Shown here piece by piece: positions 2,197-35,716 of a stretch of DNA of 35,716 bases. The first letter of the stretch is position 1. Each line of letters opens with the position of its first letter. A model generated the notes under the pieces. That model searched no databases. It was not told the DNA's origin and saw only the letters and a program-made list of their open reading frames with translations. The position numbers were made by a program, and so were the translations under genes. Location of the stretch: positions 2,259 through 37,974 of the forward strand of contig CAZCCM010000003.1 of assembly GCA_964497325.1 (NCBI GenBank), in the 5' to 3' direction. The DNA comes from an uncultured Lachnospiraceae bacterium (lineage in GTDB: Bacteria; Bacillota; Clostridia; TANB77; CAG-508).

Positions 2197-2224
2197 TGAA
2201 AAAAGAATTCAAACAATATATAAT
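2197..2224 (+). promoter_or_regulatory. Putative sigma-A promoter of the 2259-6831 cassette
   Basis: TTGAAA (2197-2202), 16 nt, TATAAT (2219-2224), about 35 nt upstream of the SD (AGGAGA) and ATG at 2259. Confidence 0.5.
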
Positions 2225-2258
2225 CAATGTAGTAATAGAATGTTAGGAGATAAGAGAG

Positions 2259-2621
2259 ATGAGTGAAACTGTAAATCTTGAAGATAGACAAGCCTATGCA
2301 GAAGTAGACTTTATAATACATAACATGAATGAAAAGTATATAAACATGTTGCCTAAAAAGATGTTAGACTTTTTTAAAGAAGTCAAAGATCCTAATTATG
2401 AAGTTCAAATAGATGTTAAAAGACCACTTTATGATCAATCTTTAAAGGATTATACTTTTGATTTACTTAACATTTTAAATTTGAATTATTGGTGTGAAGA
2501 CGAAGAAAGAAAAAAAGAAATTTTAAATATGTTATCAACATCATCTGCAGAGCCAAAGTTTGAAGAACAAATGAAAAGTAATCTATTTACAGAGATTAAA
2601 GAAGAAAATAATAAAAAATAG
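2259..2621 (+). CDS. Hypothetical small acidic cytosolic protein (120 aa)
   Basis: ORF with an AGGAGA SD. No TM segment and no motif I can name. First gene after the predicted promoter. Confidence 0.6.
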   Translation: MSETVNLEDRQAYAEVDFIIHNMNEKYINMLPKKMLDFFKEVKDPNYEVQIDVKRPLYDQSLKDYTFDLLNILNLNYWCEDEERKKEILNMLSTSSAEPKFEEQMKSNLFTEIKEENNKK

Positions 2622-2630
2622 GAAGTAATT

Positions 2631-3182
2631 ATGGGTATAAGTAAAAAACAAAAATTTACAGTGCTAATTACATTTGTATTTGTTTGTTTAATTTCAATTA
2701 ATGTTTTTGCCAGTCAACAACAAAATCATATGTATAATAGTCAAACAACAAATAAATCAATAATACAATCAGGAACTGAAATGGTTCAATCTAATCCACA
2801 AACAGACAATTCTATAATAGTAAATGAGCAAGAAGAAACTAAAATTGAAGGAGATGAGGCTCTTCCTGTTAAGCAAAAAACAGAACTACTTAAAATGAAA
2901 GACGAGTCTAGAGATCAATTATCAAAATATATAGTAAAATATAAAAACAATACAGTTTATGGAACTATAGCTTATATTTTAAATACGGTTAGATTAGTTG
3001 CTGTACCTTTTTTTATAGTTGGTTATTTAATTAGTATTGTTTATGAATTTATAGTAGGAATGAAAAGAAGAGAAATGGTTAGAAAAGGTAGAGGAATGAG
3101 AATTACATTGGTATCAGCTTTTGTTATGGCACAATTATTACCTTTAATTTTCGCAATTGTAATTAAGTTTTGGGGGAACTAA
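2631..3182 (+). CDS. Hypothetical secreted/membrane protein: signal peptide, Q/N/S-rich region, two C-terminal TM helices
   Basis: N-terminal FTVLITFVFVCLISINVFA followed by SQQQ fits a signal peptide. C-terminal hydrophobic segments are VRLVAVPFFIVGYLISIVYEFIV and ITLVSAFVMAQLLPLIFAIVIKFW. It starts 9 nt after the previous gene. Confidence 0.65.
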   Translation: MGISKKQKFTVLITFVFVCLISINVFASQQQNHMYNSQTTNKSIIQSGTEMVQSNPQTDNSIIVNEQEETKIEGDEALPVKQKTELLKMKDESRDQLSKYIVKYKNNTVYGTIAYILNTVRLVAVPFFIVGYLISIVYEFIVGMKRREMVRKGRGMRITLVSAFVMAQLLPLIFAIVIKFWGN

Positions 3183-3184
3183 AG

Positions 3185-5593
3185 ATGAAAGTTTTGTTTG
3201 CAGTTAATAATGAAAGCATATCAGAAACAATAATTAAAAAATATCAAAAAATATATGATGTATTGTTAGAATATAAGAATGTGTATTACTATAATGCAAT
3301 AGTAAAAGAAATTCAAAATGAAAGTAACTATGATATAATAGTTATTAGTGAAGATTTAGAAACAATATCTTCTAATGATAAAAGAAAAGTAGATGCTTTT
3401 ATTTTAGATAAATTAGAAAAAGTTATTGATGTATTTAAGGCAGTGGAAATAAATCCAATACCTATATTATTTATTTCAAATGAAAAAAGAACTATAAAAA
3501 ATGAAATTATTCCTAATATGTTTAATTTAGGAATATATAATGCTTTAGTAGAAAAAGATAGAACTATAACTAAAATATGTGAATTAATTAATTCACCAAG
3601 AAGTGAAGAGGAAGCAAGACAATATTATAATTTAAGAGGTAGTAACAAAGTTAGTATAGAAAAAGAAATTGTTAATCCAAAAGAAATTAATAATATTTTA
3701 AAACATTATAAAAAAATAATGGATATGCCTGATAGATTTAGTTCAAGTTTTGATAGAATTGCAGCACAATATGATGACTTACAATTAAAATATATTATAG
3801 ATAAACTACCTGAAGGAGTAACAGCTGTATTAATTAAAGAAAATCAAAAGTATAATGAAATTATAAATTTGAAAGAAGAAGATTTTGTGAAAGAACAACC
3901 TGTTGTTACAAATTCTTCTGCTCCTAAAAGCTCAGGTGTTATAGTCCCAACAGAAATAAGTAAAGGTAATGTTAAATCTCAAACAATAGATTCTCCGGCT
4001 ATAACTCCAAGAGTTGAAATTGAAGAAAAACCAATTATTGAGAATGTTAAAATACCTGAAGAAGTTAAAGAACAAAATTTAGAAAATACATTAGAAATTG
4101 AGATTGAAAAAGAACCAGAAAAAGAAATAATTAAAGATAATAAATTAGACTTGAATATTCCTTCAAAAACAGATGATTTAGAATTAAAAGAAGAAACAAA
4201 ACCTATTATAGAAGAAGATTCTAAGAGTAGTTCAAATGAAATTGTAATTGAAGGAACAGATGATTTAGATATATTCTTAGATACTGATTTTGATAATGAA
4301 AATGATGATTTTATTCCTATTTTTGGAGTTGAAGAGACAAGCGACTTATTAGAAAAAGAAAATACAGAAATTGTTAAAGAAACTAATTCTACTAAAAAAG
4401 AAGAATCTAAAGAAGCATCTAAAGTAGAACAAAGTACAGATTTAGAAATTAGTGAAGTTGATGATGATATAAATATATTCCCGGAGGACATTTCATTAGA
4501 TGGTATAGATTTTGATTCAATATCTGATAATGCAGTAGAAGAAATAATTCCTGAAGAAACAGTATTTGTTTCAGAGCCAAATGTAACTAAACAAACTATA
4601 GTAGAAGAAAAAAATAATGATGTTTTTGATGAAATACCAAAAAAAGAAAATGATAGATTAGTTCCACAAGGTAAGAAAAAACATATTATTCCTGATTTAT
4701 CAGCAGTTTTATCTAAAGATAAAAAGGTTGTTGTATTCGTTGGAACAAGTAAAAATGGTACTTCATTTTTGGTAAATTCTTTAGGAATGTTGTTTGCATC
4801 GATAGGAATTAATACAGCTATTTTAGATATGACTAAAAATAAAAATAGTTATTATTTATCAACTAAAAATGATGAAAGATTGAGACAAATTGCAATTGAA
4901 TCTACCTCAAGGCTTAAAGAAGGAGTAGCTATGGGTGTTGAAGTACTAAAAGGTTTATCTATATACACTTCATTACCTGGAGTTAAAGAAGAAGATTCTG
5001 ACACAGAGGTAATTCTTTCAACATTAGTTAAAAATTATTCATTAGTTTTAATAGATGCTGATTTTGATACAAATTTTGGATATTTTAGTGCAGCTCAGGA
5101 AATATATTTAGTTCAATCTTTAGATGTTCTTACAATTCAACCTTTAACTGCATTTTTAAAAGAGTTGTTAGATGCTAGAATATTAACAACAGAAAAAGTA
5201 AAAGTTGTTTTAAATAAAGAAGTAGCGGTAAGAGGATTAACTAGAAAAATATTAGTTGGAGGTATTTCAACATATAATGATCCAGGTATGTCTATTATGA
5301 CCAATCTTTTTGATAGAAATCAAGTACAAGTAGCATCAATACCTTTTGATCAAAATGTATATTCTAAGTATTTAGAAAATATTGTTGAATGTAAGTATGA
5401 TATTTCGGGATATCCTAAAAAGTTTGTTGAATCCTTAAAAATTTTAGCTAATATGGTTTATCCATTAATATCACGACAAAGAGATTCTAGTTTAAATGGC
5501 AATGTAACAATGCCTGGAATAAATAATTCTACAGCTCAACCTTTTACAAATGATATGACATCTACATTAGATCAAATGAGAAAAAATTTATAA
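3185..5593 (+). CDS. Receiver-like N-domain / long acidic linker / ParA-MinD-CpaE(TadZ)-like domain protein with degenerate Walker A
   Basis: I prefer ATG 3185 (GGGGGA SD 6-7 nt upstream) over the track start TTG 3170. N-terminus MKVLFAVNNE...YDIIVISEDLE...PILFISNEK looks CheY-like but without the acidic pocket or acceptor Asp (my by-eye alignment). The region around 3890-4680 is E/K/D/I-rich and low complexity. The C-terminus KKVVVFVGTSKNGTSFLVNSLG...SLVLIDADFD resembles the deviant-Walker-A ATPase fold. Confidence 0.7.
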   Translation: MKVLFAVNNESISETIIKKYQKIYDVLLEYKNVYYYNAIVKEIQNESNYDIIVISEDLETISSNDKRKVDAFILDKLEKVIDVFKAVEINPIPILFISNEKRTIKNEIIPNMFNLGIYNALVEKDRTITKICELINSPRSEEEARQYYNLRGSNKVSIEKEIVNPKEINNILKHYKKIMDMPDRFSSSFDRIAAQYDDLQLKYIIDKLPEGVTAVLIKENQKYNEIINLKEEDFVKEQPVVTNSSAPKSSGVIVPTEISKGNVKSQTIDSPAITPRVEIEEKPIIENVKIPEEVKEQNLENTLEIEIEKEPEKEIIKDNKLDLNIPSKTDDLELKEETKPIIEEDSKSSSNEIVIEGTDDLDIFLDTDFDNENDDFIPIFGVEETSDLLEKENTEIVKETNSTKKEESKEASKVEQSTDLEISEVDDDINIFPEDISLDGIDFDSISDNAVEEIIPEETVFVSEPNVTKQTIVEEKNNDVFDEIPKKENDRLVPQGKKKHIIPDLSAVLSKDKKVVVFVGTSKNGTSFLVNSLGMLFASIGINTAILDMTKNKNSYYLSTKNDERLRQIAIESTSRLKEGVAMGVEVLKGLSIYTSLPGVKEEDSDTEVILSTLVKNYSLVLIDADFDTNFGYFSAAQEIYLVQSLDVLTIQPLTAFLKELLDARILTTEKVKVVLNKEVAVRGLTRKILVGGISTYNDPGMSIMTNLFDRNQVQVASIPFDQNVYSKYLENIVECKYDISGYPKKFVESLKILANMVYPLISRQRDSSLNGNVTMPGINNSTAQPFTNDMTSTLDQMRKNL

Positions 5594-5616
5594 TTATATT
5601 TAAAATAGGAAGATAA

Positions 5617-6831
5617 ATGCCAGAATTAATTTTTATAATAATTTTAATAATAATAGTTTTACTTTTAATTTTATATAATTTATATGTAAAACGTAATTTT
5701 AAAACAGTTGAAAAATCACGTAAAAGATTAGATGATTTATCTGTATTAAATGAATTAGTAAAAATAACAGCAAGTTTAAAACCAGTAAATGATAAACTTG
5801 TAAATATTAATAATATTCTTATAGAAAAATTTAATATAGATTATTCTTCAATTATAATATTTGATGGTAAAAGATTTGTAGCAAAAGCTACAAATTTAGA
5901 TAAAAAGAATATAGCATCAATAGAAAAAGTATATTCACATCCAATTTTTGCAGATGCTATACAAACTAAAGAAGCAAAATATATAACTGTAGAAAATCCT
6001 ACAGATAATCTAGAATATTTAACAGAAGAAAAAGAGAGAGTAAAAACAGCCATATTTTATCCCTTGTATATTGATTCTGTTTTTGTAGGATTTTGGCTTA
6101 TTGAATCTAAAAGAATACAGGCTTTTAAAGATTTAGACATGCAAATTATGGTTGAAATTAAATCTAGGCTTCTAGATATTGTAAGAACAATGTCTTTTCA
6201 ATCTTCAATGGAAAATATGGTAAAACAAGATTTATTTTCTTCACTTAAAACTTATGAATACTTACTAACTGAAGGTAAATTAAAGTTAGAAAAATATGAT
6301 GAATCTACAATAATAATGTATAGAATTTCAAATTTAGAACAAATTAATGAAGAATTTTCAAGACAAGCTGGTAATATGACAATAACTAATGTAACAGAGG
6401 CAGTTAATAGGGTATTACATGAGACTAAACAAAATAATATTTTTGTTAGGTACTCTGGTCCAAGATTTGCAATTGCTTTTCCTGGAATAATACCAGAAAA
6501 TTTAAATGTAATGGAATCAATAAAAAAGGCTGTTGAATCAACCTACATAATGCAGTCTGAGGCTGAGCAAGCAAGGATTGATGAAATTGAAGATATAGAT
6601 ATTTTAACAGAAGAAACGGTAGAAGATAAAACTTCTAAATCTAAAAAAACATCAAAAGAAAAAGATAAATCAAAAGAAAAAAATGAAAAAGAAGAAAATA
6701 AAAAGATTGTTCCAAAGTTAAATATAGTTGCTGCTAAATATTACAGAGGTGTTGGATTAGAAATATTAACAAAAGAATTAGAAGATTTTCTAGAAGAATT
6801 AGAAGAAGAATCTTCTATAACTATATTATAA
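5617..6831 (+). CDS. Membrane-anchored GAF-like / degenerate GGDEF-like protein (GGDEF motif replaced by SGPRF)
   Basis: N-terminal TM helix LIFIIILIIIVLLLILYNLYV. The middle region looks GAF-like (FYPLYIDSVFVGFWLIES). The C-terminal region aligns by eye to GGDEF domains (IIMYRISNLEQINEEFSRQAGNMTITNV...FVRYSGPRFAIAFPG) and carries a K/E-rich insertion. Confidence 0.65.
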   Translation: MPELIFIIILIIIVLLLILYNLYVKRNFKTVEKSRKRLDDLSVLNELVKITASLKPVNDKLVNINNILIEKFNIDYSSIIIFDGKRFVAKATNLDKKNIASIEKVYSHPIFADAIQTKEAKYITVENPTDNLEYLTEEKERVKTAIFYPLYIDSVFVGFWLIESKRIQAFKDLDMQIMVEIKSRLLDIVRTMSFQSSMENMVKQDLFSSLKTYEYLLTEGKLKLEKYDESTIIMYRISNLEQINEEFSRQAGNMTITNVTEAVNRVLHETKQNNIFVRYSGPRFAIAFPGIIPENLNVMESIKKAVESTYIMQSEAEQARIDEIEDIDILTEETVEDKTSKSKKTSKEKDKSKEKNEKEENKKIVPKLNIVAAKYYRGVGLEILTKELEDFLEELEEESSITIL

Positions 6832-6855: not shown

Positions 6856-7107
6856 ATGGTTTCAGATAAAACAATGAAATATGACGGGCTTGAAGCAAAT
6901 GCTGAGTCAAATAAAAAAATTTTAAAAGAAGTATATGCAGCTTTGGTTGAAAAAGGATATAATCCTATTAATCAAATTGTAGGATATATTTTATCAGGAG
7001 ATCCTACATATATTACAAATCATAAAGATGCAAGAGCTTTAATAAGCAAAATAGAAAAAGATGAGTTATTACAAGAATTAATAATTTCATATTTAGGTTT
7101 AGAATAG
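6856..7107 (+). CDS. ireB: IreB family regulatory phosphoprotein (UPF0297, YrzL-like)
   Basis: 83 aa. [35 protein letters not shown] is the family hallmark. AAGGAGG SD. Conserved neighbour of ruvX. Confidence 0.85.
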
Positions 7108-7108
7108 T

Positions 7109-7534
7109 ATGAGAATATTGGGCATAGATTATGGAGATAGAAGAGTAGGTTTTGCAATTACTGATCCACTTAATATTACAGTTCAAGGCTTATACACTCT
7201 TGATTACAATGGTAATGATAAACATATTCTTAGAGAGTTAGATAAAATTTTAGAAGAATATGAAATAGATAAAATTGTAGTAGGAATGCCATATAATATG
7301 GATGGAACTAAAGGTTTTAGAGTTGAAAAAACAGAAGCTTTTATCCATAAGTTAAGATGTAAGTATAATAAAATTAAAATAGAAACAGCAGATGAAAGGC
7401 TTACAACAGTTATGGCCAATAAAACGATGAATTTTTTAGAAATTAAAAGTTCAAAGAAAAAAGGAATTGTAGATACATTATCAGCTGTATACATATTAGA
7501 AGATTATTTGAAAAAAATTAGCCCCCAGGACTAA
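7109..7534 (+). CDS. ruvX: Putative pre-16S rRNA nuclease / Holliday junction resolvase-like RuvX (YqgF)
   Basis: MRILGIDYGDRRVGFAITDP at the N-terminus and DERLTT near the C-terminus are typical of the YqgF family. Confidence 0.9.
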   Translation: MRILGIDYGDRRVGFAITDPLNITVQGLYTLDYNGNDKHILRELDKILEEYEIDKIVVGMPYNMDGTKGFRVEKTEAFIHKLRCKYNKIKIETADERLTTVMANKTMNFLEIKSSKKKGIVDTLSAVYILEDYLKKISPQD

Positions 7535-7615: not shown

Positions 7616-7936
7616 ATGAGTGATGATAAAGAAATAAAGCAAGATGAAGAATCTATGGAAGAGGATAGTGTATATCAAATCTTTGTTGATGAAGATAATA
7701 ATGAAATACCTTTTGAAATTTTAGATTTTTTTGAATATGAAAATGCAGAATATGTTGTATTGATGCCTTTAGAAGAAGAGGAATCAGAAGAAGAAACAGA
7801 AGTTGTTATTTTTAAATTAGAAAAATCAAGTGAAGAAGAAGAAACATATACTGTGGTTGATGATGAATCAGTATTAGAAGCAGTTTTTGAAATGTTTAAG
7901 GAAAGAAATAATGACATATATAACTTTTCAGACTAA
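7616..7936 (+). CDS. DUF1292 family protein (YrzB-like)
   Basis: Acidic 106-aa protein with FEILDFFEYENAEYVVLMP. Sits in the conserved ireB-ruvX-DUF1292 order. Confidence 0.8.
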   Translation: MSDDKEIKQDEESMEEDSVYQIFVDEDNNEIPFEILDFFEYENAEYVVLMPLEEEESEEETEVVIFKLEKSSEEEETYTVVDDESVLEAVFEMFKERNNDIYNFSD

Positions 7937-7957
7937 AAGATAATATGAAAAATAATG

Positions 7958-7984
7958 GGGGAGTTTAAGCTCTCCTTTTGTTTT
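7958..7984 (+). terminator. Putative rho-independent terminator after the DUF1292 gene
   Basis: Stem GGGGAG (7958-7963) / CTCTCC (7970-7975) with one G-U pair and a 6-nt loop, followed by TTTTGTTTT. Confidence 0.5.
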
Positions 7985-7993
7985 GGAGGAAAA

Positions 7994-8461
7994 ATGGAAT
8001 TAATTAGTTACTTGTTTTCAATGTTTGCTGTATTTTTTTGGTTGTTTAGACTAGTAGTATCTTTTGCACCAAATATTAATTTAAACTTGCCATTTGTATC
8101 TGAAAATTTAATAATAGAAATTATTATTCTGTTTATATCATTGCTGGGGTTAATAGGTATATTTAAAAGAAAAACATTTTTAACTGCAGTATATTTAGCA
8201 AGTTATTTTGCATATTATGGTTATGAAATATTTAATATTGTTTCTAACTCACAAGGTATACTTGCAAGTGGAGATACTAAAAATATAGTTATTTATAGTT
8301 TAGGAATATTAATAGCACTTTTAAATTTTTTAGATGTATTGTTAAATAAAGAGCGAAAAGGATCTACTAAAAATGTAAATTTAGATTGGTATTATAGTGA
8401 AGGCAATTTTGAAAGAGAAAAAGACGAAAGAGTAGATCAAAATAGATATAGAATAAAATAA
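7994..8461 (+). CDS. Hypothetical polytopic membrane protein
   Basis: I place the start at ATG 7994 (GGAGGA SD at 7985-7990). The track extension from 7955 lies on the terminator hairpin. There are about four hydrophobic helices and a charged C-terminal tail. Confidence 0.6.
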   Translation: MELISYLFSMFAVFFWLFRLVVSFAPNINLNLPFVSENLIIEIIILFISLLGLIGIFKRKTFLTAVYLASYFAYYGYEIFNIVSNSQGILASGDTKNIVIYSLGILIALLNFLDVLLNKERKGSTKNVNLDWYYSEGNFEREKDERVDQNRYRIK

Positions 8462-14300: not shown

Positions 14301-14899
14301 ATGAATATAGAAATTGATCAAAATATATATTATCCGTTAGGTGGGGGTTCTTATGTTTTTAAAGAAAACTAAGTGGAGAATATATTATCTAAAATTAAAA
14401 AATATAAAGCGATTGTCCGTATCATGGGAAGTTTAGCTATAATTATCTTTTAGAAACTAGTAAACTTGAATACAATACTCCTTTAAGGAATCTTATTAGG
14501 GCAATATATTATTCCAAAGTAAATAATTCAAATGAATATAATTATGAAATTATTCGAATAACTGGAAGTGATTATGCAGGATATTATCAAGAAGAATTGC
14601 TATATAAAGTTGTAGCAACTCTTGGATATAGTGCAGATAAATTACCAGAAATTATATATGCACCATTAGTGTTAGATTGGTCTGGAGCAAAAATATCTAA
14701 ATCTTTATATGTTAAAGAGAATGCTTATGATTATTTACCCAAATATATTGTTGATTACAATATTTAAAAAAAAGAATTTGGAATAGAAGGACTTAATAAA
14801 ATATTAAATATTACAGATACTTGGTTTGATAATCCATATATGCTTTTTAGACATTATACTGTATACTATTTTATAAAGGAGTTAGAGAAGAATGTTTAA
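14301..14899 (+). pseudogene. Degraded coding remnant with in-frame stops and a frameshift; original function unknown
   Basis: ATG 14301 (AAGGA SD) is followed by an in-frame TAA at 14370 and TAG at 14451. A 120-codon stop-free stretch with no start codon runs in the next frame (14408-14764), ending at TAA 14765-14767. The same frame stays open for another 43 codons to TAA 14897. An open stretch this long is very unlikely by chance at this AT content. Confidence 0.5.
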
Positions 14900-15326
14900 T
14901 AATGCAATATATATTAGTGTAAAACCTAAATTTACTAAATTAATTGAGTCTGGTGAAAAAAATTATGAATTTAGAAAGTACATGCCTAAGGAAGAAGTTA
15001 AAACATTATTTATTTATGAATCGTTGCCATTATCCAGATTAACATATATTATTGAATTAGGAGACATTATACATTATCCAAATAAAATTGATATTAATGG
15101 ATATGGTAATATTGAATTTAACGAAGGATTAAAAGTATCAAAATATGCGTATTTTTTAAAAAAAGTGTACAAGTTAGAAAAACCTATATTATTAAAAGAT
15201 TTAAAAAAATATGGATTTAATGCTCCACAAGCCTATTCATATGATTATAGGTATCCTGAATTGACTGAATATATAAAGAGTCAACAAATTAAATTAATTA
15301 TTAACAGAGAAGATTTAAAGAACTAA
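14892..15326 (+). CDS. ASCH domain protein (COG4933-like)
   Basis: ISVKPKFTKLIESGEKNYEFRKY at the N-terminus and ...PILLKDLKKYGFNAPQAYSY near the C-terminus match the ASCH/PUA-like pattern. AAGGAG SD. Confidence 0.65.
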   Translation: MFNNAIYISVKPKFTKLIESGEKNYEFRKYMPKEEVKTLFIYESLPLSRLTYIIELGDIIHYPNKIDINGYGNIEFNEGLKVSKYAYFLKKVYKLEKPILLKDLKKYGFNAPQAYSYDYRYPELTEYIKSQQIKLIINREDLKN

Positions 15327-20032: not shown

Positions 20033-20081
20033 TATTCTCCATGATAAAATTAAAGAAGAAAAGAGTAAAATATGGAGAATA
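20033..20081 (+). promoter_or_regulatory. 10-bp perfect inverted repeat whose 3' arm contains the start codon of the downstream gene
   Basis: TATTCTCCAT (20033-20042) and ATGGAGAATA (20072-20081) are reverse complements. G-U pairs could extend the stem. The loop is 29 nt. Confidence 0.4.
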
Positions 20082-20872
20082 TTAAAAATATGAAAAGCAA
20101 GGAAAGAAAAGAGTCAAAAGAAAAAAATAATAAAAAAATTAATGATAAAGAAGGAAAAAATCAAAAGTATGATTTTATAAATGTATTTAATTATTTATTA
20201 ATAAATGCATTTAGAATTATACTTCTTTTTTTACTTATAAGTTCAATAATTAAAAAAGATAAAGAACAAATTCTTTTGGTTTCATTATGTTCAATTACAT
20301 CATTTTACAGAGAACTTATATTTCTTTTTACAAAGATAAGAATCTCTGTTGTAATGCAGATAATCTTTACAACATTTTTAATTTTAGCCATATTATTTGG
20401 AACCTTAATGAAGGTATATGATAAAGTTCCTTGGTGGGATACAATGTTGCATGGAGTTTCTGGAATTCTTTTAGTTATTTCCTCTTTAATGGTATTAGCA
20501 ATGATGAAAGAAAAAAATAAAAATATAAAATATTCAGTTGGATTAGTAGTATCTTATGCTTTCTTTTTTTCAATGACAGCAGGGGTAATTTGGGAATTAT
20601 TAGAATTTACTGCTGATAATTTTTTTGGAATGAATGCACAAAGAGCAAAAGGTGTAGAGTACGGCGTTTTAGACACTATGCAAGATATTATTGCAAACAC
20701 AGTAGGTACAACTATTGCTTGTATTGTGTTGTTTTCTGTATTAACAAAAAAATCTTCTGAAGAAATTTATTTGTTTTTAAAAGAATGGTTTCTTGTTCCA
20801 GAAGATGACAGAGAAAGAAGAAAAAGAATACATAAAATACATAAAAAACAAATTACTGAAAGTCAAAAGTAA
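20072..20872 (+). CDS. Hypothetical polytopic membrane protein with Lys-rich N- and C-terminal tails
   Basis: About six hydrophobic helices. Motifs WWDTMLHGVSG and WELLEFTAD, which I cannot assign confidently to a family. An alternative in-frame start is at 20090. Confidence 0.6.
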   Translation: MENIKNMKSKERKESKEKNNKKINDKEGKNQKYDFINVFNYLLINAFRIILLFLLISSIIKKDKEQILLVSLCSITSFYRELIFLFTKIRISVVMQIIFTTFLILAILFGTLMKVYDKVPWWDTMLHGVSGILLVISSLMVLAMMKEKNKNIKYSVGLVVSYAFFFSMTAGVIWELLEFTADNFFGMNAQRAKGVEYGVLDTMQDIIANTVGTTIACIVLFSVLTKKSSEEIYLFLKEWFLVPEDDRERRKRIHKIHKKQITESQK

Positions 20873-21028: not shown

Positions 21029-21802
21029 ATGAAAAAATTTTTAATAGGAATTATTGTAACAATAGTATTGCTAGTTCTTTTAGGAGGAATTTTTTTCTTA
21101 ATAGATAAGGCAGAATATTTTAGTAAGGGAGAAACTTTTTTTACTATAAATGAAGATATGGGAGATAATTTAACTCGTAGGATAGGATTAGGATATGTAA
21201 TGTATACTAGAAATACAGGATTTCCTAATAATGAAAATGATAATATAATTTCTTCATGGTTTAAAGCGGTAAAGAGAGATGAAGCTATTGAAATATTATT
21301 AAAAGACAAAATACTTTTTGAAAATCTAAGTCTTGAAGAAAATCAAGTAGTGAAGTATTATTCTTATTTATTAATGACAAGCTTAAATTCAAAAGGTGAA
21401 GAGCTTAAAGAAGTAGATACAAATACAATTTTCGTTAATTTTGACAAATTAGAAGACTTACAAACAAGTGAAAAAATATCTAAACCTGTTATTGAAGCTA
21501 TAAAAGATACTTTAAAACAGAAACTAAATAACCCTGAAATTAAAATAGAAAATAGTAATACAGATGAATTATCAAGAGAAGAAAAAATACAATCTACTAT
21601 AGTAAGAGGATATTCTCAAGGAATTTATGTAGATATTAATAGGGTTGAATTAAGAAATGAAGTAGAAGTAAAATTAGTTCAAATAGAAATAGTAAACAGT
21701 TTTAGAACTAAAGAATCTTATAAAGCTGAAATTAAATACAGTTTTAATACAGCTTTAATAAAAGAATCTGTAGATGGAAATATATTTACAGAAGTAAAAT
21801 AA
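21029..21802 (+). CDS. Hypothetical protein with N-terminal membrane anchor
   Basis: AAGGAG SD and an N-terminal TM helix (FLIGIIVTIVLLVLLGGIFFLI). The rest has no motif I recognise. Confidence 0.6.
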   Translation: MKKFLIGIIVTIVLLVLLGGIFFLIDKAEYFSKGETFFTINEDMGDNLTRRIGLGYVMYTRNTGFPNNENDNIISSWFKAVKRDEAIEILLKDKILFENLSLEENQVVKYYSYLLMTSLNSKGEELKEVDTNTIFVNFDKLEDLQTSEKISKPVIEAIKDTLKQKLNNPEIKIENSNTDELSREEKIQSTIVRGYSQGIYVDINRVELRNEVEVKLVQIEIVNSFRTKESYKAEIKYSFNTALIKESVDGNIFTEVK

Positions 21803-32960: not shown

Positions 32961-32987
32961 TGATAGCTTTTTTAATTAAAGCTATCA
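32961..32987 (+). promoter_or_regulatory. Perfect 10-bp palindrome (TGATAGCTTT-N7-AAAGCTATCA) between the SD and start codon of the surface protein gene
   Basis: Read directly. It is flanked by GAAAGGAGAGAG (32949-32960) upstream and ATG 33000 downstream. Neither strand has a T-run after it, so it is not a terminator. Confidence 0.6.
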
Positions 32988-32999
32988 TGTAAGAACAAT

Positions 33000-35716
33000 A
33001 TGAAAAAAAGAAAAATTAAAGCAGTTATTATTCTTTTGATATTAATAGTATTAACAATATTACCATCAAAAGTTTTTGCGATACCTGCAAGTGTAGAAGA
33101 TCAAAGAAAAGCTGTGATATCAGTAGCAGAAGCTTTTAAAAGAAAGTCTAATAAGGTTCAGTACTGTAGTTATAGAAAAAATCTTTTTGCGACTCCAGAA
33201 GATGCTACAGAACAAACAACTGTGTTTACAGTATGTAGTGGTTTAACTTTCCAATCTTATTATCAAGCACTTGGAATAGAAATCCCACTGTTTACTGCTG
33301 ATTTATTAAATTATGCTAGTATAAATAAAAATAAAACAGATAATATTATTTTCTTTTATAATAATGAAGGAGACTCTGATATAAAAGTTTCTGACGTTTT
33401 ACCTAGTAAGAAAGATGCAGATAGAGAAGCATTTGTTTCAAAAATTATAGATAAAGTTTTACCTGGAGATGTTTTTGTTTATACAGGACATGCTACCTTG
33501 GTAAAAGAAGTAAATAAAGCTACAAATACAATAACTTTAATAGAATCTAGCAGTCATGGTTTTAAATTTAATCCTGAAGATGAAGAACGAAGTGAATTTT
33601 ATAATGAGAATGGTACTGTTGGAGAAGTAAACTTAAAAGATAGATTAGATCATTCAGCAAAAAGAATGGCGCTAATTAGATTTATCACAGATGGGACATC
33701 TTTTTTAGAACCCGTTAATAAGAATAAAGAAGAAGGTAAGATTGTAAATCAGGAAGGAATTACAGAAGCTTCGTTTGCAAGATTTGAATTTCCAGATATA
33801 GATATTGAAAAAACAGTAAAAATCAATGGTAAGTATGGGAATAATTTTGCTAATCCTGGGGATATATTATCATTTAAGATTGAAATAACAAATAATAGTT
33901 CAAAAAAGTATTCTAATATGAAAATTTCTGAAAACATAGATTCTAATTTTAATTTTATTTCATCATCAGGTGGAGTTTATGAAAATAATATATTAGAGTG
34001 GGAAAATGTTACGGTAAATGCAAAAGAATCAAAAATTTTAAATTATCAAGTAAAATTATCTAATGATGATAGACTTCTTGGTGAAATAATTTTATCAACA
34101 GGAAATGTATCAGGAATTAATTCGGGGAGAATTGAAATAAAAGTTGGAGCATCACTTGATAATGATCAAATAGATAAAATTAAAAATTCATTTAATAATT
34201 TAAAAACTAATACAGTTAATGAAAGAAATTTTATTAATGAAGTATATTTAAATGCATTAGGAGTAAATTTAGGTATTAGTGGACTAACTAATTTTGATAT
34301 CATAAGCTATGATTCAACAATACCATTTGGTGGATCAGATAAATTGCCACCTGAATTAAGAGATAAATTATCAGTTAACCTTACTAAAGTAAATCCTAAT
34401 TTTAGTGATTTGATTTTAAATAATTATTATGGTCTGAAATTGGCGACTGCTACAGATCCAGATAAACAAGAAGTAAGGTCTATTTCAAATTGGAATGTTT
34501 ATGTAAAAAAATATTTAATTGATAGAGCTAGAGAGATTACTTATAAGAATTTAGAAGAAGGAGATATTATATTAACATACCAAGGAAAAGAAAGTTATAC
34601 AGATCCAAATTTAATAAATAAATCTTATATTTATTTAGATGGTAGTTTATATAGAAAATTAGCTAACAATACAATAGAACAACTATCAAATGATGGATTA
34701 GAAGATTTTTTAAAAAATTTAGTTGTTGAAAATTATGTTGTTTTAAGACCAGCTCTTATTTATGGAAATATTAAAGGAGATACAATATTACCGGAAAATT
34801 GTACAATTACATATAAATTAAGTGGTGGAACATATAATGGGAAAACAGATGATATAATAAGAGAAGTAACATATAATACAAAGCCAGAAGACATAACACC
34901 AACAAGAGAACATTATATATTTAATGGTTGGGATAAAGAGATTGTAGCAGCAACAGAAGATATAACATATACAGCACAATGGAAACCAGTAACCTATACC
35001 TACACATTTAAATTAGATGGTGGAAATATAAATGGTGATACAGATGATGTTTTGTTAAGTGGAAAATATAATACAGACTCAAGTACACCTAAAATTCCAA
35101 CAAAAGAACACTATACATTTACAGGTTGGTCTCCTACAGTACCAAGTACATATGAAGGGAATAATACATATACAGCACAATGGACACCAGCAACCTATAC
35201 CTACACATTTAAATTAGATGGTGGAAATATAGATGGTGATATAGATGATGTTTTGTTAAGTGGAGAATATAATACAGACTCAAGTACACCTAAAATTCCA
35301 ACAAAAGAACACTATACATTTACAGGTTGGTCTCCTACAGTACCAAGTACATATGAAGGGAATAACACATATACAGCACAATGGACACCAGTAGGTTATA
35401 CGATTACATATAAATTAAGTGGTGGAACATATAATGGAAAAACAGATGATGTAATAAGAGAAGTAACATATAATACAAAGCCAGAAGACATAACACCAAC
35501 AAGAGAACATTATATATTTAATGGTTGGGATAAAGAGATTGTAGCAGCAACAGAAGATATAACATATACAGCACAATGGAAACCAGTAACCTATACCTAC
35601 ACATTTAAATTAGATGGTGGAAATATAAATGGTGATACAGATGATGTTTTGTTAAGTGGAAAATATAATACAGACTCAAGTACACCTAAAATTCCAACAA
35701 AAGAACACTATACATT
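33000..35716 (+). CDS. Large secreted surface protein, 3'-partial (runs off the window): signal peptide, NlpC/P60-like Cys/His region, DUF11-like domain, Listeria-Bacteroides (Flg_new) repeats
   Basis: Absent from the supplied ORF track. I translated it by hand from ATG 33000 and found no stop through 35716 (905 codons). Signal peptide MKKRKIKAVIILLILIVLTILPSKVFA followed by IPAS. VFTVCSGLTF and GDVFVYTGHATLV resemble the NlpC/P60 catalytic Cys and His. PGDILSFKIEITNNS...ILEWENVTVNAKESKILNYQVKL is DUF11-like. At least five repeats of YT.T(Y/F)KL.GG...G..D...PT(R/K)EHY.F.GW......YTAQW follow. Confidence 0.85.
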   Translation, partial: MKKRKIKAVIILLILIVLTILPSKVFAIPASVEDQRKAVISVAEAFKRKSNKVQYCSYRKNLFATPEDATEQTTVFTVCSGLTFQSYYQALGIEIPLFTADLLNYASINKNKTDNIIFFYNNEGDSDIKVSDVLPSKKDADREAFVSKIIDKVLPGDVFVYTGHATLVKEVNKATNTITLIESSSHGFKFNPEDEERSEFYNENGTVGEVNLKDRLDHSAKRMALIRFITDGTSFLEPVNKNKEEGKIVNQEGITEASFARFEFPDIDIEKTVKINGKYGNNFANPGDILSFKIEITNNSSKKYSNMKISENIDSNFNFISSSGGVYENNILEWENVTVNAKESKILNYQVKLSNDDRLLGEIILSTGNVSGINSGRIEIKVGASLDNDQIDKIKNSFNNLKTNTVNERNFINEVYLNALGVNLGISGLTNFDIISYDSTIPFGGSDKLPPELRDKLSVNLTKVNPNFSDLILNNYYGLKLATATDPDKQEVRSISNWNVYVKKYLIDRAREITYKNLEEGDIILTYQGKESYTDPNLINKSYIYLDGSLYRKLANNTIEQLSNDGLEDFLKNLVVENYVVLRPALIYGNIKGDTILPENCTITYKLSGGTYNGKTDDIIREVTYNTKPEDITPTREHYIFNGWDKEIVAATEDITYTAQWKPVTYTYTFKLDGGNINGDTDDVLLSGKYNTDSSTPKIPTKEHYTFTGWSPTVPSTYEGNNTYTAQWTPATYTYTFKLDGGNIDGDIDDVLLSGEYNTDSSTPKIPTKEHYTFTGWSPTVPSTYEGNNTYTAQWTPVGYTITYKLSGGTYNGKTDDVIREVTYNTKPEDITPTREHYIFNGWDKEIVAATEDITYTAQWKPVTYTYTFKLDGGNINGDTDDVLLSGKYNTDSSTPKIPTKEHYT
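34806..35716 (+). repeat. Near-identical in-frame tandem DNA repeats encoding the Flg_new modules (597-nt super-repeat of three 186/201/210-nt modules)
   Basis: By manual comparison, 34806-34991 and 35403-35588 differ at 2 positions. 34992-35119 is identical to 35589-35716. 34992-35192 and 35193-35402 differ by a handful of substitutions. Confidence 0.9.

Follow-up and report, generated by a model that had tools for sequence, protein, structure and literature searches.

Two unnamed genes linked to ireB in uncultured gut Clostridia encode a small membrane protein and a candidate TadZ-like hub with a variant P-loop

The genes described here lie in a 35,716-nt stretch of DNA (the window) from an uncultured Lachnospiraceae bacterium of the family CAG-508 (assembly GCA_964497325.1, contig CAZCCM010000003.1). 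Four consecutive plus-strand genes without names, g1 to g4, stand there between scpB and the genes ireB, ruvX and DUF1292, and a first-pass annotation made from the sequence alone treated the four as one cassette. Comparison across related genomes corrects the unit to study: the conserved core is g2 and g3 joined to ireB–ruvX–DUF1292, because g1 and scpB are rare among 86 related loci and a deep clade of relatives lacks g4. The best reading that we infer for this core, a tentative one to which we give a little less than an even chance, is that g3 acts as a membrane-associated, TadZ-like hub that is co-expressed with IreB, probably in cell-envelope organisation. The anatomy of the genes and their arrangement as one operon, as set out below, are held with high confidence.

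Open reading frames (ORFs) of the 86 related loci, whose g3 proteins are 35–66% identical, were searched with the window proteins. g3 was present in all 86 loci, g2 in 83, g4 in 84, ireB in 85, ruvX in 83 and the DUF1292 gene in 80; scpB was found in 2 and g1 in 3. The genes g2–g3–g4–ireB–ruvX–DUF1292 keep a fixed order on a single strand, and ireB directly follows g4 or g3 in 85 of the 86 loci and in four loci of the deep clade. This clade, at 31–36% identity, has the arrangement [Peptidase_S11]–g2–g3–ireB–ruvX–DUF1292, with g4 absent from all four loci that extend past g3 and with g3 abutting ireB; a true g2 homolog occurs in all four loci that reach upstream of g3 (hmmsearch E 1e-39 to 6e-11). 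g2 and g3 are always paired, upstream of the ireB block, and the expectation that all four genes travel together holds for these two and fails for g1 and, in the deep clade, for g4. The cassette had also been described as inserted between scpB and ireB. This wording does not hold, as the scpB flank is variable and the link to ireB is conserved. A foreign insertion was considered and rejected, both on the conserved linkage to ireB and on the even base composition: GC content is 0.23–0.27 across the cassette, level with the window, which leaves no compositional sign of a foreign insert.

It could be argued that the genes share no function, that each acts independently, and that a reduced genome which rearranges slowly has kept them side by side by inherited synteny. 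Every carrier found is an uncultured Clostridia genome from metagenomes, and ireB–ruvX–DUF1292 is itself a widely conserved trio in Firmicutes, both of which fit this explanation. However, the flanks on either side of the block vary while the block itself is constant, the gaps within it are too short for terminators, and the linkage persists between clades at 31–36% identity and across the gain or loss of g4. Synteny alone is therefore judged a rather improbable account.

The family is large and anonymous. Clustered homologs of g3 number more than 2,500, none with a Pfam domain, and the two source-named ones listed are each a 'hypothetical protein'. When the first 234 residues of g3 were compared with 1.84 billion cluster representatives, 307 clusters were recovered, and in every case the N-terminal domain made up the first 230 or so residues of a long protein. 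When one genome per species was scanned with motifs specific to the TANB77-type proteins, at least 566 stretches were confirmed, a figure that allows up to two per gene and is neither a species count nor the full range. The best 80 loci all come from metagenome-assembled genomes of uncultured gut Clostridia, among them Clostridium sp. CAG:508 and Ca. Scatovivens. The uncultured order TANB77, which has been linked to immunotherapy response, counts CAG-508 among its major families (PMC11680825).

Within the window, g1 (2259–2621), g2 (2631–3182), g3 (3185–5593) and g4 (5617–6831) are separated by gaps of 9, 2 and 23 nt, in agreement with the positions and gaps first annotated. The start of g3 is the ATG that yields the family-invariant MKVLFAV, and not the upstream TTG at 3170. 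ireB, which encodes an IreB/ReoM family phosphoprotein, follows on the same strand at 6856–7107, 24 nt past g4 and with its own AAGGAGG ribosome-binding site; ruvX (YqgF family; 7109–7534) and the DUF1292 gene (7616–7936), probably the last gene of the operon, complete the plus-strand series. Upstream, the scpB terminator that had been placed at 2145–2175 is there, as a hairpin (2145–2171) with a 12-bp stem followed by a T run; it is readable on both strands and forms the upstream boundary of the operon. It is followed by a sigma-70-like promoter on the plus strand at 2196–2224, with TTGAAA at 2196–2201, a 17-nt spacer and TATAAT at 2219–2224. The elements are those first annotated, with a trivial offset in the spacer and start, then given as 16 nt and 2197. 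The promoter is a consensus match only, at 11 of 12 positions, and promoter-like matches are no commoner in the window than in shuffled sequence (41 found, 55.7 expected). Sites that resemble terminators exceed the number expected from shuffles (8, against 0.9), and the window scan found no plus-strand site of this kind between 2171 and 7957. A plus-strand hairpin, GGGGGAG–TTTAAG–CTCTCC with a T run, lies just past DUF1292 at 7957–7985 and is the probable end of the operon.

The related loci give the same picture. Median gaps in the order g2–g3–g4–ireB–ruvX–DUF1292 are 3, 24, 15.5, 1 and 95 nt across the 86 loci, and g4 and ireB lie less than 30 nt apart in 73 of 84. Hairpins of the terminator type are found in none of 84 g4–ireB gaps, in one of 84 g3–g4 gaps and in none of 80 ruvX–DUF1292 gaps, and a terminator-like site lies downstream of DUF1292 in 35 of 77 loci. 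The earlier suggestion that no terminator precedes ireB, and that the genes may be co-transcribed with ireB–ruvX–DUF1292, is thereby borne out as likely. To judge from these sequence signals, the region is likely a single operon of approximately 5.7 kb, running from the promoter at 2196–2224 through g1–g2–g3–g4–ireB–ruvX–DUF1292 to the terminator at 7957–7985 and transcribed as a single message.

The largest of the four proteins, g3 (802 aa), had been described as a pseudo-receiver, an acidic linker and a ParA/MinD/CpaE-like domain, and structure prediction together with Foldseek searches agrees. The AlphaFold2 (AF2) model is confident over residues 1–150, a (beta-alpha)x5 domain with a predicted local distance difference test score (pLDDT) of 85–96, over a helical bundle at residues 165–234, and over a C-terminal domain at residues 505–760 (pLDDT of approximately 90); residues 234–497 are disordered. 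In window coordinates, all on the plus strand, the receiver-like domain spans 3185–3634, the small conserved bundle, which has no recognisable relative, spans residues 160–234 (3662–3886), the disordered acidic linker spans residues 235–497 (3887–4675), with 28% Asp plus Glu and D/E-[IL]-[FP] motifs, and the ParA/MinD-fold domain spans 4697–5464.

Foldseek comparison with the PDB gave 50 top matches, all of which concern the C domain and all of which are ParA/MinD-type or related SIMIBI P-loop proteins, among them Soj, ParA, MinD, FlhG, FleN, BcsQ, NifH and HypB (E from 2.4e-7, target TM-score 0.52–0.71, and 0.62–0.71 for Soj, MinD, FlhG, FleN and BcsQ). Within the viral structure library BFVD, a 'CpaE_like' protein matches g3 along 263 columns, a length that corresponds to the C domain, and ranks second overall and best for this domain. 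Stretches of approximately 145 columns, which correspond in length to the N domain, weakly match receiver domains of hybrid kinases and response regulators in the same library (E 2e-3 to 0.1). The signature residues of a receiver are missing from it: at positions assigned from predicted secondary structure, the segment after beta1 reads NNE, GNA or GSE with no acidic pair, an invariant Glu56 takes the place of the phospho-acceptor Asp after beta3 and is followed by D, E, N or Q at position 57, and the conserved Lys after beta5 is absent. The architecture of a probable pseudo-receiver, a disordered acidic linker and a ParA/MinD-fold domain is thus confirmed at the level of predicted structure.

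The P-loop of the C domain, GTSKNGTS in the window (4742–4765), follows the pattern G-x-x-K-x-G-T-[ST]-F, which holds without exception among 199 unique homologs and throughout the deep clade. Relative to the MinD sequence GKGGVGKT, the signature lysine and the canonical lysine are both missing, because the loop reads GxxKxGT[ST] throughout; both are replaced, and a new invariant lysine stands at loop position 4. The glycines and the Ser/Thr of the site are retained. An A'-type Asp548 and the Walker B-like segment hhhD624-x-D626-F (LIDADF in the window) are invariant or nearly so in both clades, and this conservation of Asp548, Asp624 and Asp626 hints that a nucleotide/Mg site may be retained. 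We infer that the site remains in use, and the simplest case would be that it binds nucleotide but hydrolyses it little or in an altered way.

Of the known proteins, TadZ/CpaE comes closest to g3 in architecture. TadZ, a localisation factor of Tad/Flp pili, is ParA/MinD-like and combines an atypical receiver with a Walker A-like K/RGGxGxS/T motif; it has been proposed to be a hub that localises other proteins and not a motor (bioRxiv 10.64898/2026.07.08.737194). Like TadZ, g3 has an atypical receiver followed by an atypical ATPase domain from which the canonical Walker A lysine is absent. It is therefore conceivable that g3 is an additional TadZ/CpaE paralogue that positions a Tad-type pilus encoded elsewhere in the genome, with g2 as a pilus-associated membrane component; this shared two-domain plan, the 'CpaE_like' protein as the best C-domain match in the viral library, and the conserved Tad cluster that TANB77 genomes carry (PMC11680825) would all be explained. 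However, that cluster already includes a TadZ (231 aa) and a CpaE (280 aa) (PMC11680825). No tad gene adjoins g3 in 11 annotated related loci, six TANB77-type and five from the deep clade, and TadA/CpaF, TadB/C and pilin genes were found neither there nor in the window; the constant partners of g3 are g2 and ireB, not tadA. The proteins differ as well. The loop lysine is displaced by two positions (GxxKxGT[ST] in g3, K/RGGxGxS/T in TadZ), a helical bundle and a long disordered linker separate the two domains of g3, a membrane-type tail is found at its C-terminus, and neither the window protein nor 19 homologs gave a Pfam AAA_31 or CpaE match. A role in Tad pilus positioning is consequently considered very unlikely.

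MinD, FlhG and FleN resemble g3 in fold (target TM-score 0.65–0.71) and in the Walker A' and Walker B aspartates, which are kept. Unlike MinD, g3 does not have the deviant Walker A motif KGGxGK[ST], lacking its signature and canonical lysines, and it has additional domains and three to five times the size. Neither the window nor the annotated related loci yielded a MinC/MinE or FlhF/FleQ partner.

The linker between the domains is 260 aa long in the window protein and reaches approximately 600 aa in homologs. One to three AT hooks ([RK]GRP[RK] or Pfam PF02178) occur in the linkers of 166 of the 199 unique homologs, and Pfam AT_hook itself was recorded in 6 of 19. The linkers of TANB77-type proteins carry AT hooks together with LPG/acidic repeats. 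Those of the deep clade carry charged repeats rich in ER/K and a GLFGxLK motif past the helical bundle, with no AT hooks.

These hooks, the ParA-like fold, tails that resemble membrane-targeting sequences and the proximity of scpB and ruvX in the window would suit a nucleoid–membrane tether or chromosome-organisation factor similar to Noc or RacA, in which the hooks hold DNA, the tail and g2 hold the membrane, and the link to ruvX reflects DNA transactions. Such a role is a poor candidate for the family, however. Hooks are absent from the lineage of the window and from the whole deep clade, so hook-mediated DNA binding is not ancestral; scpB is adjacent in only 2 of the 86 loci; and no ParB or parS partner is present.

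At its C-terminus g3, like other TANB77-type proteins, ends in a conserved, moderately amphipathic helix, F..M..TL.QM (5537–5593, stop codon included), which is replaced in deep-clade proteins by basic KKGLFG, RRGLFG or KGLFRRR endings. The KKGLFG-type tails resemble the membrane-targeting sequence of MinD.

Its partner g2 (183 aa) begins with a cleavable-looking signal peptide, which is followed by a short helix outside the cytoplasm (YG..AY.LN..R.YSIP) and by two C-terminal transmembrane (TM) helices that a conserved cytoplasmic GIRKLD loop connects. The signal peptide and paired TM helices had been noted at first sight, and this topology pattern is kept across 81 unique homologs. g2 is thus a small bitopic-type membrane protein that presents approximately 12 residues, the GIRKLD loop, on the cytoplasmic side.

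g4 (404 aa) had been annotated as a TM/GAF-like/GGDEF-like protein with an active site reading SGPRF, and Pfam, AF2 and Foldseek concur. Pfam PF00990 (GGDEF) scored 28.9 bits against a cut-off of 23.8, and NCBIfam TIGR00254 scored 32.1, under its cut-off of 37.4. The AF2 model (pLDDT 81) comprises an N-terminal TM helix, a cytoplasmic GAF domain (residues 55–200) and a GGDEF domain (residues 205–404); its Foldseek matches include the GAF–GGDEF cyclase Dcsbis (E 2e-10), with target TM-scores of 0.75 to GGDEF domains and 0.70 to GAF domains. The family profile matches the true cyclase DosC (E 7.5e-11), with RYmGPkF aligned to RYGGDEF. In the window RYSGPRF (6448–6468) stands in place of RxGGDEF, RY.GP.F is invariant in 43 g4 homologs, and the first Asp position is Arg or Ser. 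The metal ligands of the active site are lost and the guanine-contacting Asn244 is kept. An RxxD I-site was not found in the g4 family, where the position reads KQNN (window), SQEY or RGDN. From its presence in nearly all of the 86 loci and its absence from the deep clade, g4 appears to have been added in the TANB77-type clade.

The closest known protein to g4 is PelD, which combines a membrane anchor with GAF and degenerate GGDEF domains and binds cyclic di-GMP at an intact RxxD I-site (PMC7112168). g4 shares this TM, GAF and degenerate GGDEF plan. It lacks the I-site, no pel genes lie nearby, and PelD was not among the PDB sequence matches of the g4 profile at E up to 1.

A second analogy, a functional one, is offered by BcsQ and BcsE. 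In enterobacterial cellulose secretion, the MinD-type protein BcsQ, one of the structural matches of g3, works at the membrane together with receiver and GGDEF modules that are both degenerate. Here, however, the pseudo-receiver is fused to the MinD-like domain and not to a GGDEF domain, g4 has no I-site, and there are no bcs genes.

Taken together, such likenesses would allow the module to be a receptor system for cyclic di-GMP or another nucleotide second messenger, with g4 in a PelD- or BcsE-like role and g3 in a BcsQ- or FleN-like one: the domain plan of g4, its retained Asn244, and BcsQ and FleN among the matches of g3 would be accounted for. We regard this as highly improbable. The RxxD I-site is absent and the metal-binding acids are replaced, PelD is missing from the PDB sequence matches, and no cyclase or phosphodiesterase gene was found in the window. 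Moreover, g4 cannot be the core of the system because the deep clade does without it.

Both enzyme-like domains had been proposed to be catalytically impaired. The canonical catalytic residues are indeed missing from g3 and g4, yet the substituted sites are invariant at approximately 30% identity, and therefore look more like remodelled, still functional ligand sites than like the products of decay.

g1 (120 aa) is acidic and cytosolic, with a pI of 4.7 and 25 Asp plus Glu residues against 17 Lys plus Arg. It had been reported as acidic and without a motif that could be named, and profile scans assigned no Pfam or NCBIfam family to g1, g2 or g3. Homologs of g1 number 12, each at least 68% identical, in a word-indexed search that relatives sharing no 5-residue word escape. 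Given its occurrence in so few of the related loci, g1 appears to be an addition made within the narrow lineage of the window. Among close relatives it is the best conserved of the four proteins, at 85–86% identity against 63% for g3 and 69–72% for g4, as compared on what are apparently the same relatives' contigs (17,602 and 10,965 nt).

The case for a role in the cell envelope comes from the neighbours of g2 and g3. IreB/ReoM is a PASTA kinase substrate that controls the stability of MurA and hence peptidoglycan synthesis (PMC8528326). Directly upstream of g2, 37 of 81 loci have a gene for a G5/SH3_3/glucosaminidase protein, and three of four deep-clade loci have one for a Peptidase_S11 protein (D-Ala-D-Ala carboxypeptidase). 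Because g2 and g3 are probably fused transcriptionally to ireB and peptidoglycan hydrolase or carboxypeptidase genes are often found upstream, an envelope-organisation role for the pair is plausible, though somewhat less likely than not. Two loci of the deep clade have Spo0A approximately 4.5 kb downstream.

On the favoured reading, that of a TadZ-like hub, g3 would bind nucleotide as a slow switch of dimerisation or conformation and not as a motor. Its tail, g2, or the two together would attach it to the membrane, where it would serve as a hub and position partner proteins. The AT hooks of the linker may, in most relatives, also hold g3 to AT-rich chromosomal DNA, the hooks having been lost in the window lineage. 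The TANB77-type clade would have added g4, with its TM–GAF–pseudo-GGDEF plan, probably as a ligand-sensing or docking input. The process served would most likely be the spatial organisation of cell-envelope growth or division. The membrane-anchored scaffold proposed in the first-pass annotation remains plausible in this light.

Several results weigh against the TadZ-like hub. Pfam ParA, CbiA, AAA_31, MipZ and Response_reg gave no match to the window g3 at E up to 1; among 19 homologs, CbiA matched weakly in three (best E 0.003) and MipZ in one (E 0.03), and comparison of the g3 sequence profile with PDB chains gave only a marginal match to the CapB tyrosine kinase (E 0.027). Alignments by hhalign of the N domain with receivers (probability below 1%) and of the C domain with MinD and Soj were not significant, with shallow profiles. 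The domain identities in g3 therefore rest on predicted structure, because sequence profiles miss them. In place of AT hooks, the g3 of the window lineage has acidic motifs, which read DDLDIFL, DDFIPIF and DDDINIFP in the window, so DNA binding cannot be a core function. Regarding membrane attachment, the hydrophobic moment of the tail is not decisive, as the Escherichia coli MinD tail is near zero by the same measure. Finally, peptidoglycan-enzyme neighbours are frequent and not universal, and the genes may share an operon with ireB because they are regulated alike with growth rate, and not because they act in one pathway.

The absence of a match to any described system, as first annotated, is upheld. 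The closest relatives of g3 are TadZ/CpaE in architecture and MinD, FlhG and Soj in fold, that of g4 is PelD, and BcsQ–BcsE is an analogy of function; every one of these comparisons fails on a defining feature, which may be the Walker A motif, the residues of the receiver, the I-site or the setting of the locus. No description of the g2–g3–ireB arrangement was found in literature searches or curated families. The folds are familiar, and the combination of genes, the P-loop variant and the linkage to ireB appear to be undescribed.

Elsewhere in the window, the other ORFs scanned are housekeeping genes, including asnS, a copper ATPase, a GTPase, mini-RNase III, hpf, folD, an ABC/FtsX pair and pheST. 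The usual partners of such domains had been listed as missing, and no Tad, Min, ParB, chemotaxis or EAL/HD-GYP gene was found among the window ORFs scanned. Further use of a Tad-associated module outside Tad systems has been described (PMC11217815); no type VII secretion system genes were found among the ORFs scanned. A defence island was rejected because PADLOC defence models gave no match. Rfam identified no RNA element in the region, and Tandem Repeats Finder returned short low-complexity arrays only.

A tRNA-Met (CAT) gene lies on the minus strand at 1470–1546, between asnS and scpB. Past the operon, an ORF for a 168-aa membrane protein (7955–8461) opens inside the hairpin at 7957–7985, and GGAGG with an ATG at 7994 is its likelier start; homologs of this protein follow DUF1292 in 58 of the 86 loci. 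Three more ORFs, at 14892–15326 (144 aa), 20072–20872 (266 aa) and 21029–21802 (257 aa), have no Pfam match at E up to 1e-5, and a secreted-looking ORF of at least 913 aa, at approximately 32,970–35,716, runs past the end of the window.

The unit that merits study is therefore g2 and g3 with ireB, and not the four genes first grouped together. The two are conserved in the order of several hundred genomes and both are unnamed; their link to ireB provides a testable handle. Their carriers are uncultured, reduced-genome gut Clostridia whose cell biology is barely known, and at least part of the family belongs to TANB77. In its boldest form, which we consider unlikely as a whole, g2 and g3 would be an unrecognised positioning system of uncultured gut Clostridia, including TANB77: a membrane-partnered ParA/MinD-fold protein with a relocated P-loop lysine, siting peptidoglycan synthesis or division and wired into the PASTA-kinase/IreB pathway, to which TANB77 would have added a GAF–pseudo-GGDEF sensor and nucleoid-binding AT hooks. 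The GxxKxGT[ST] P-loop of g3 departs from the motifs of both MinD and TadZ, and could show how ParA/MinD proteins become non-motor switches.

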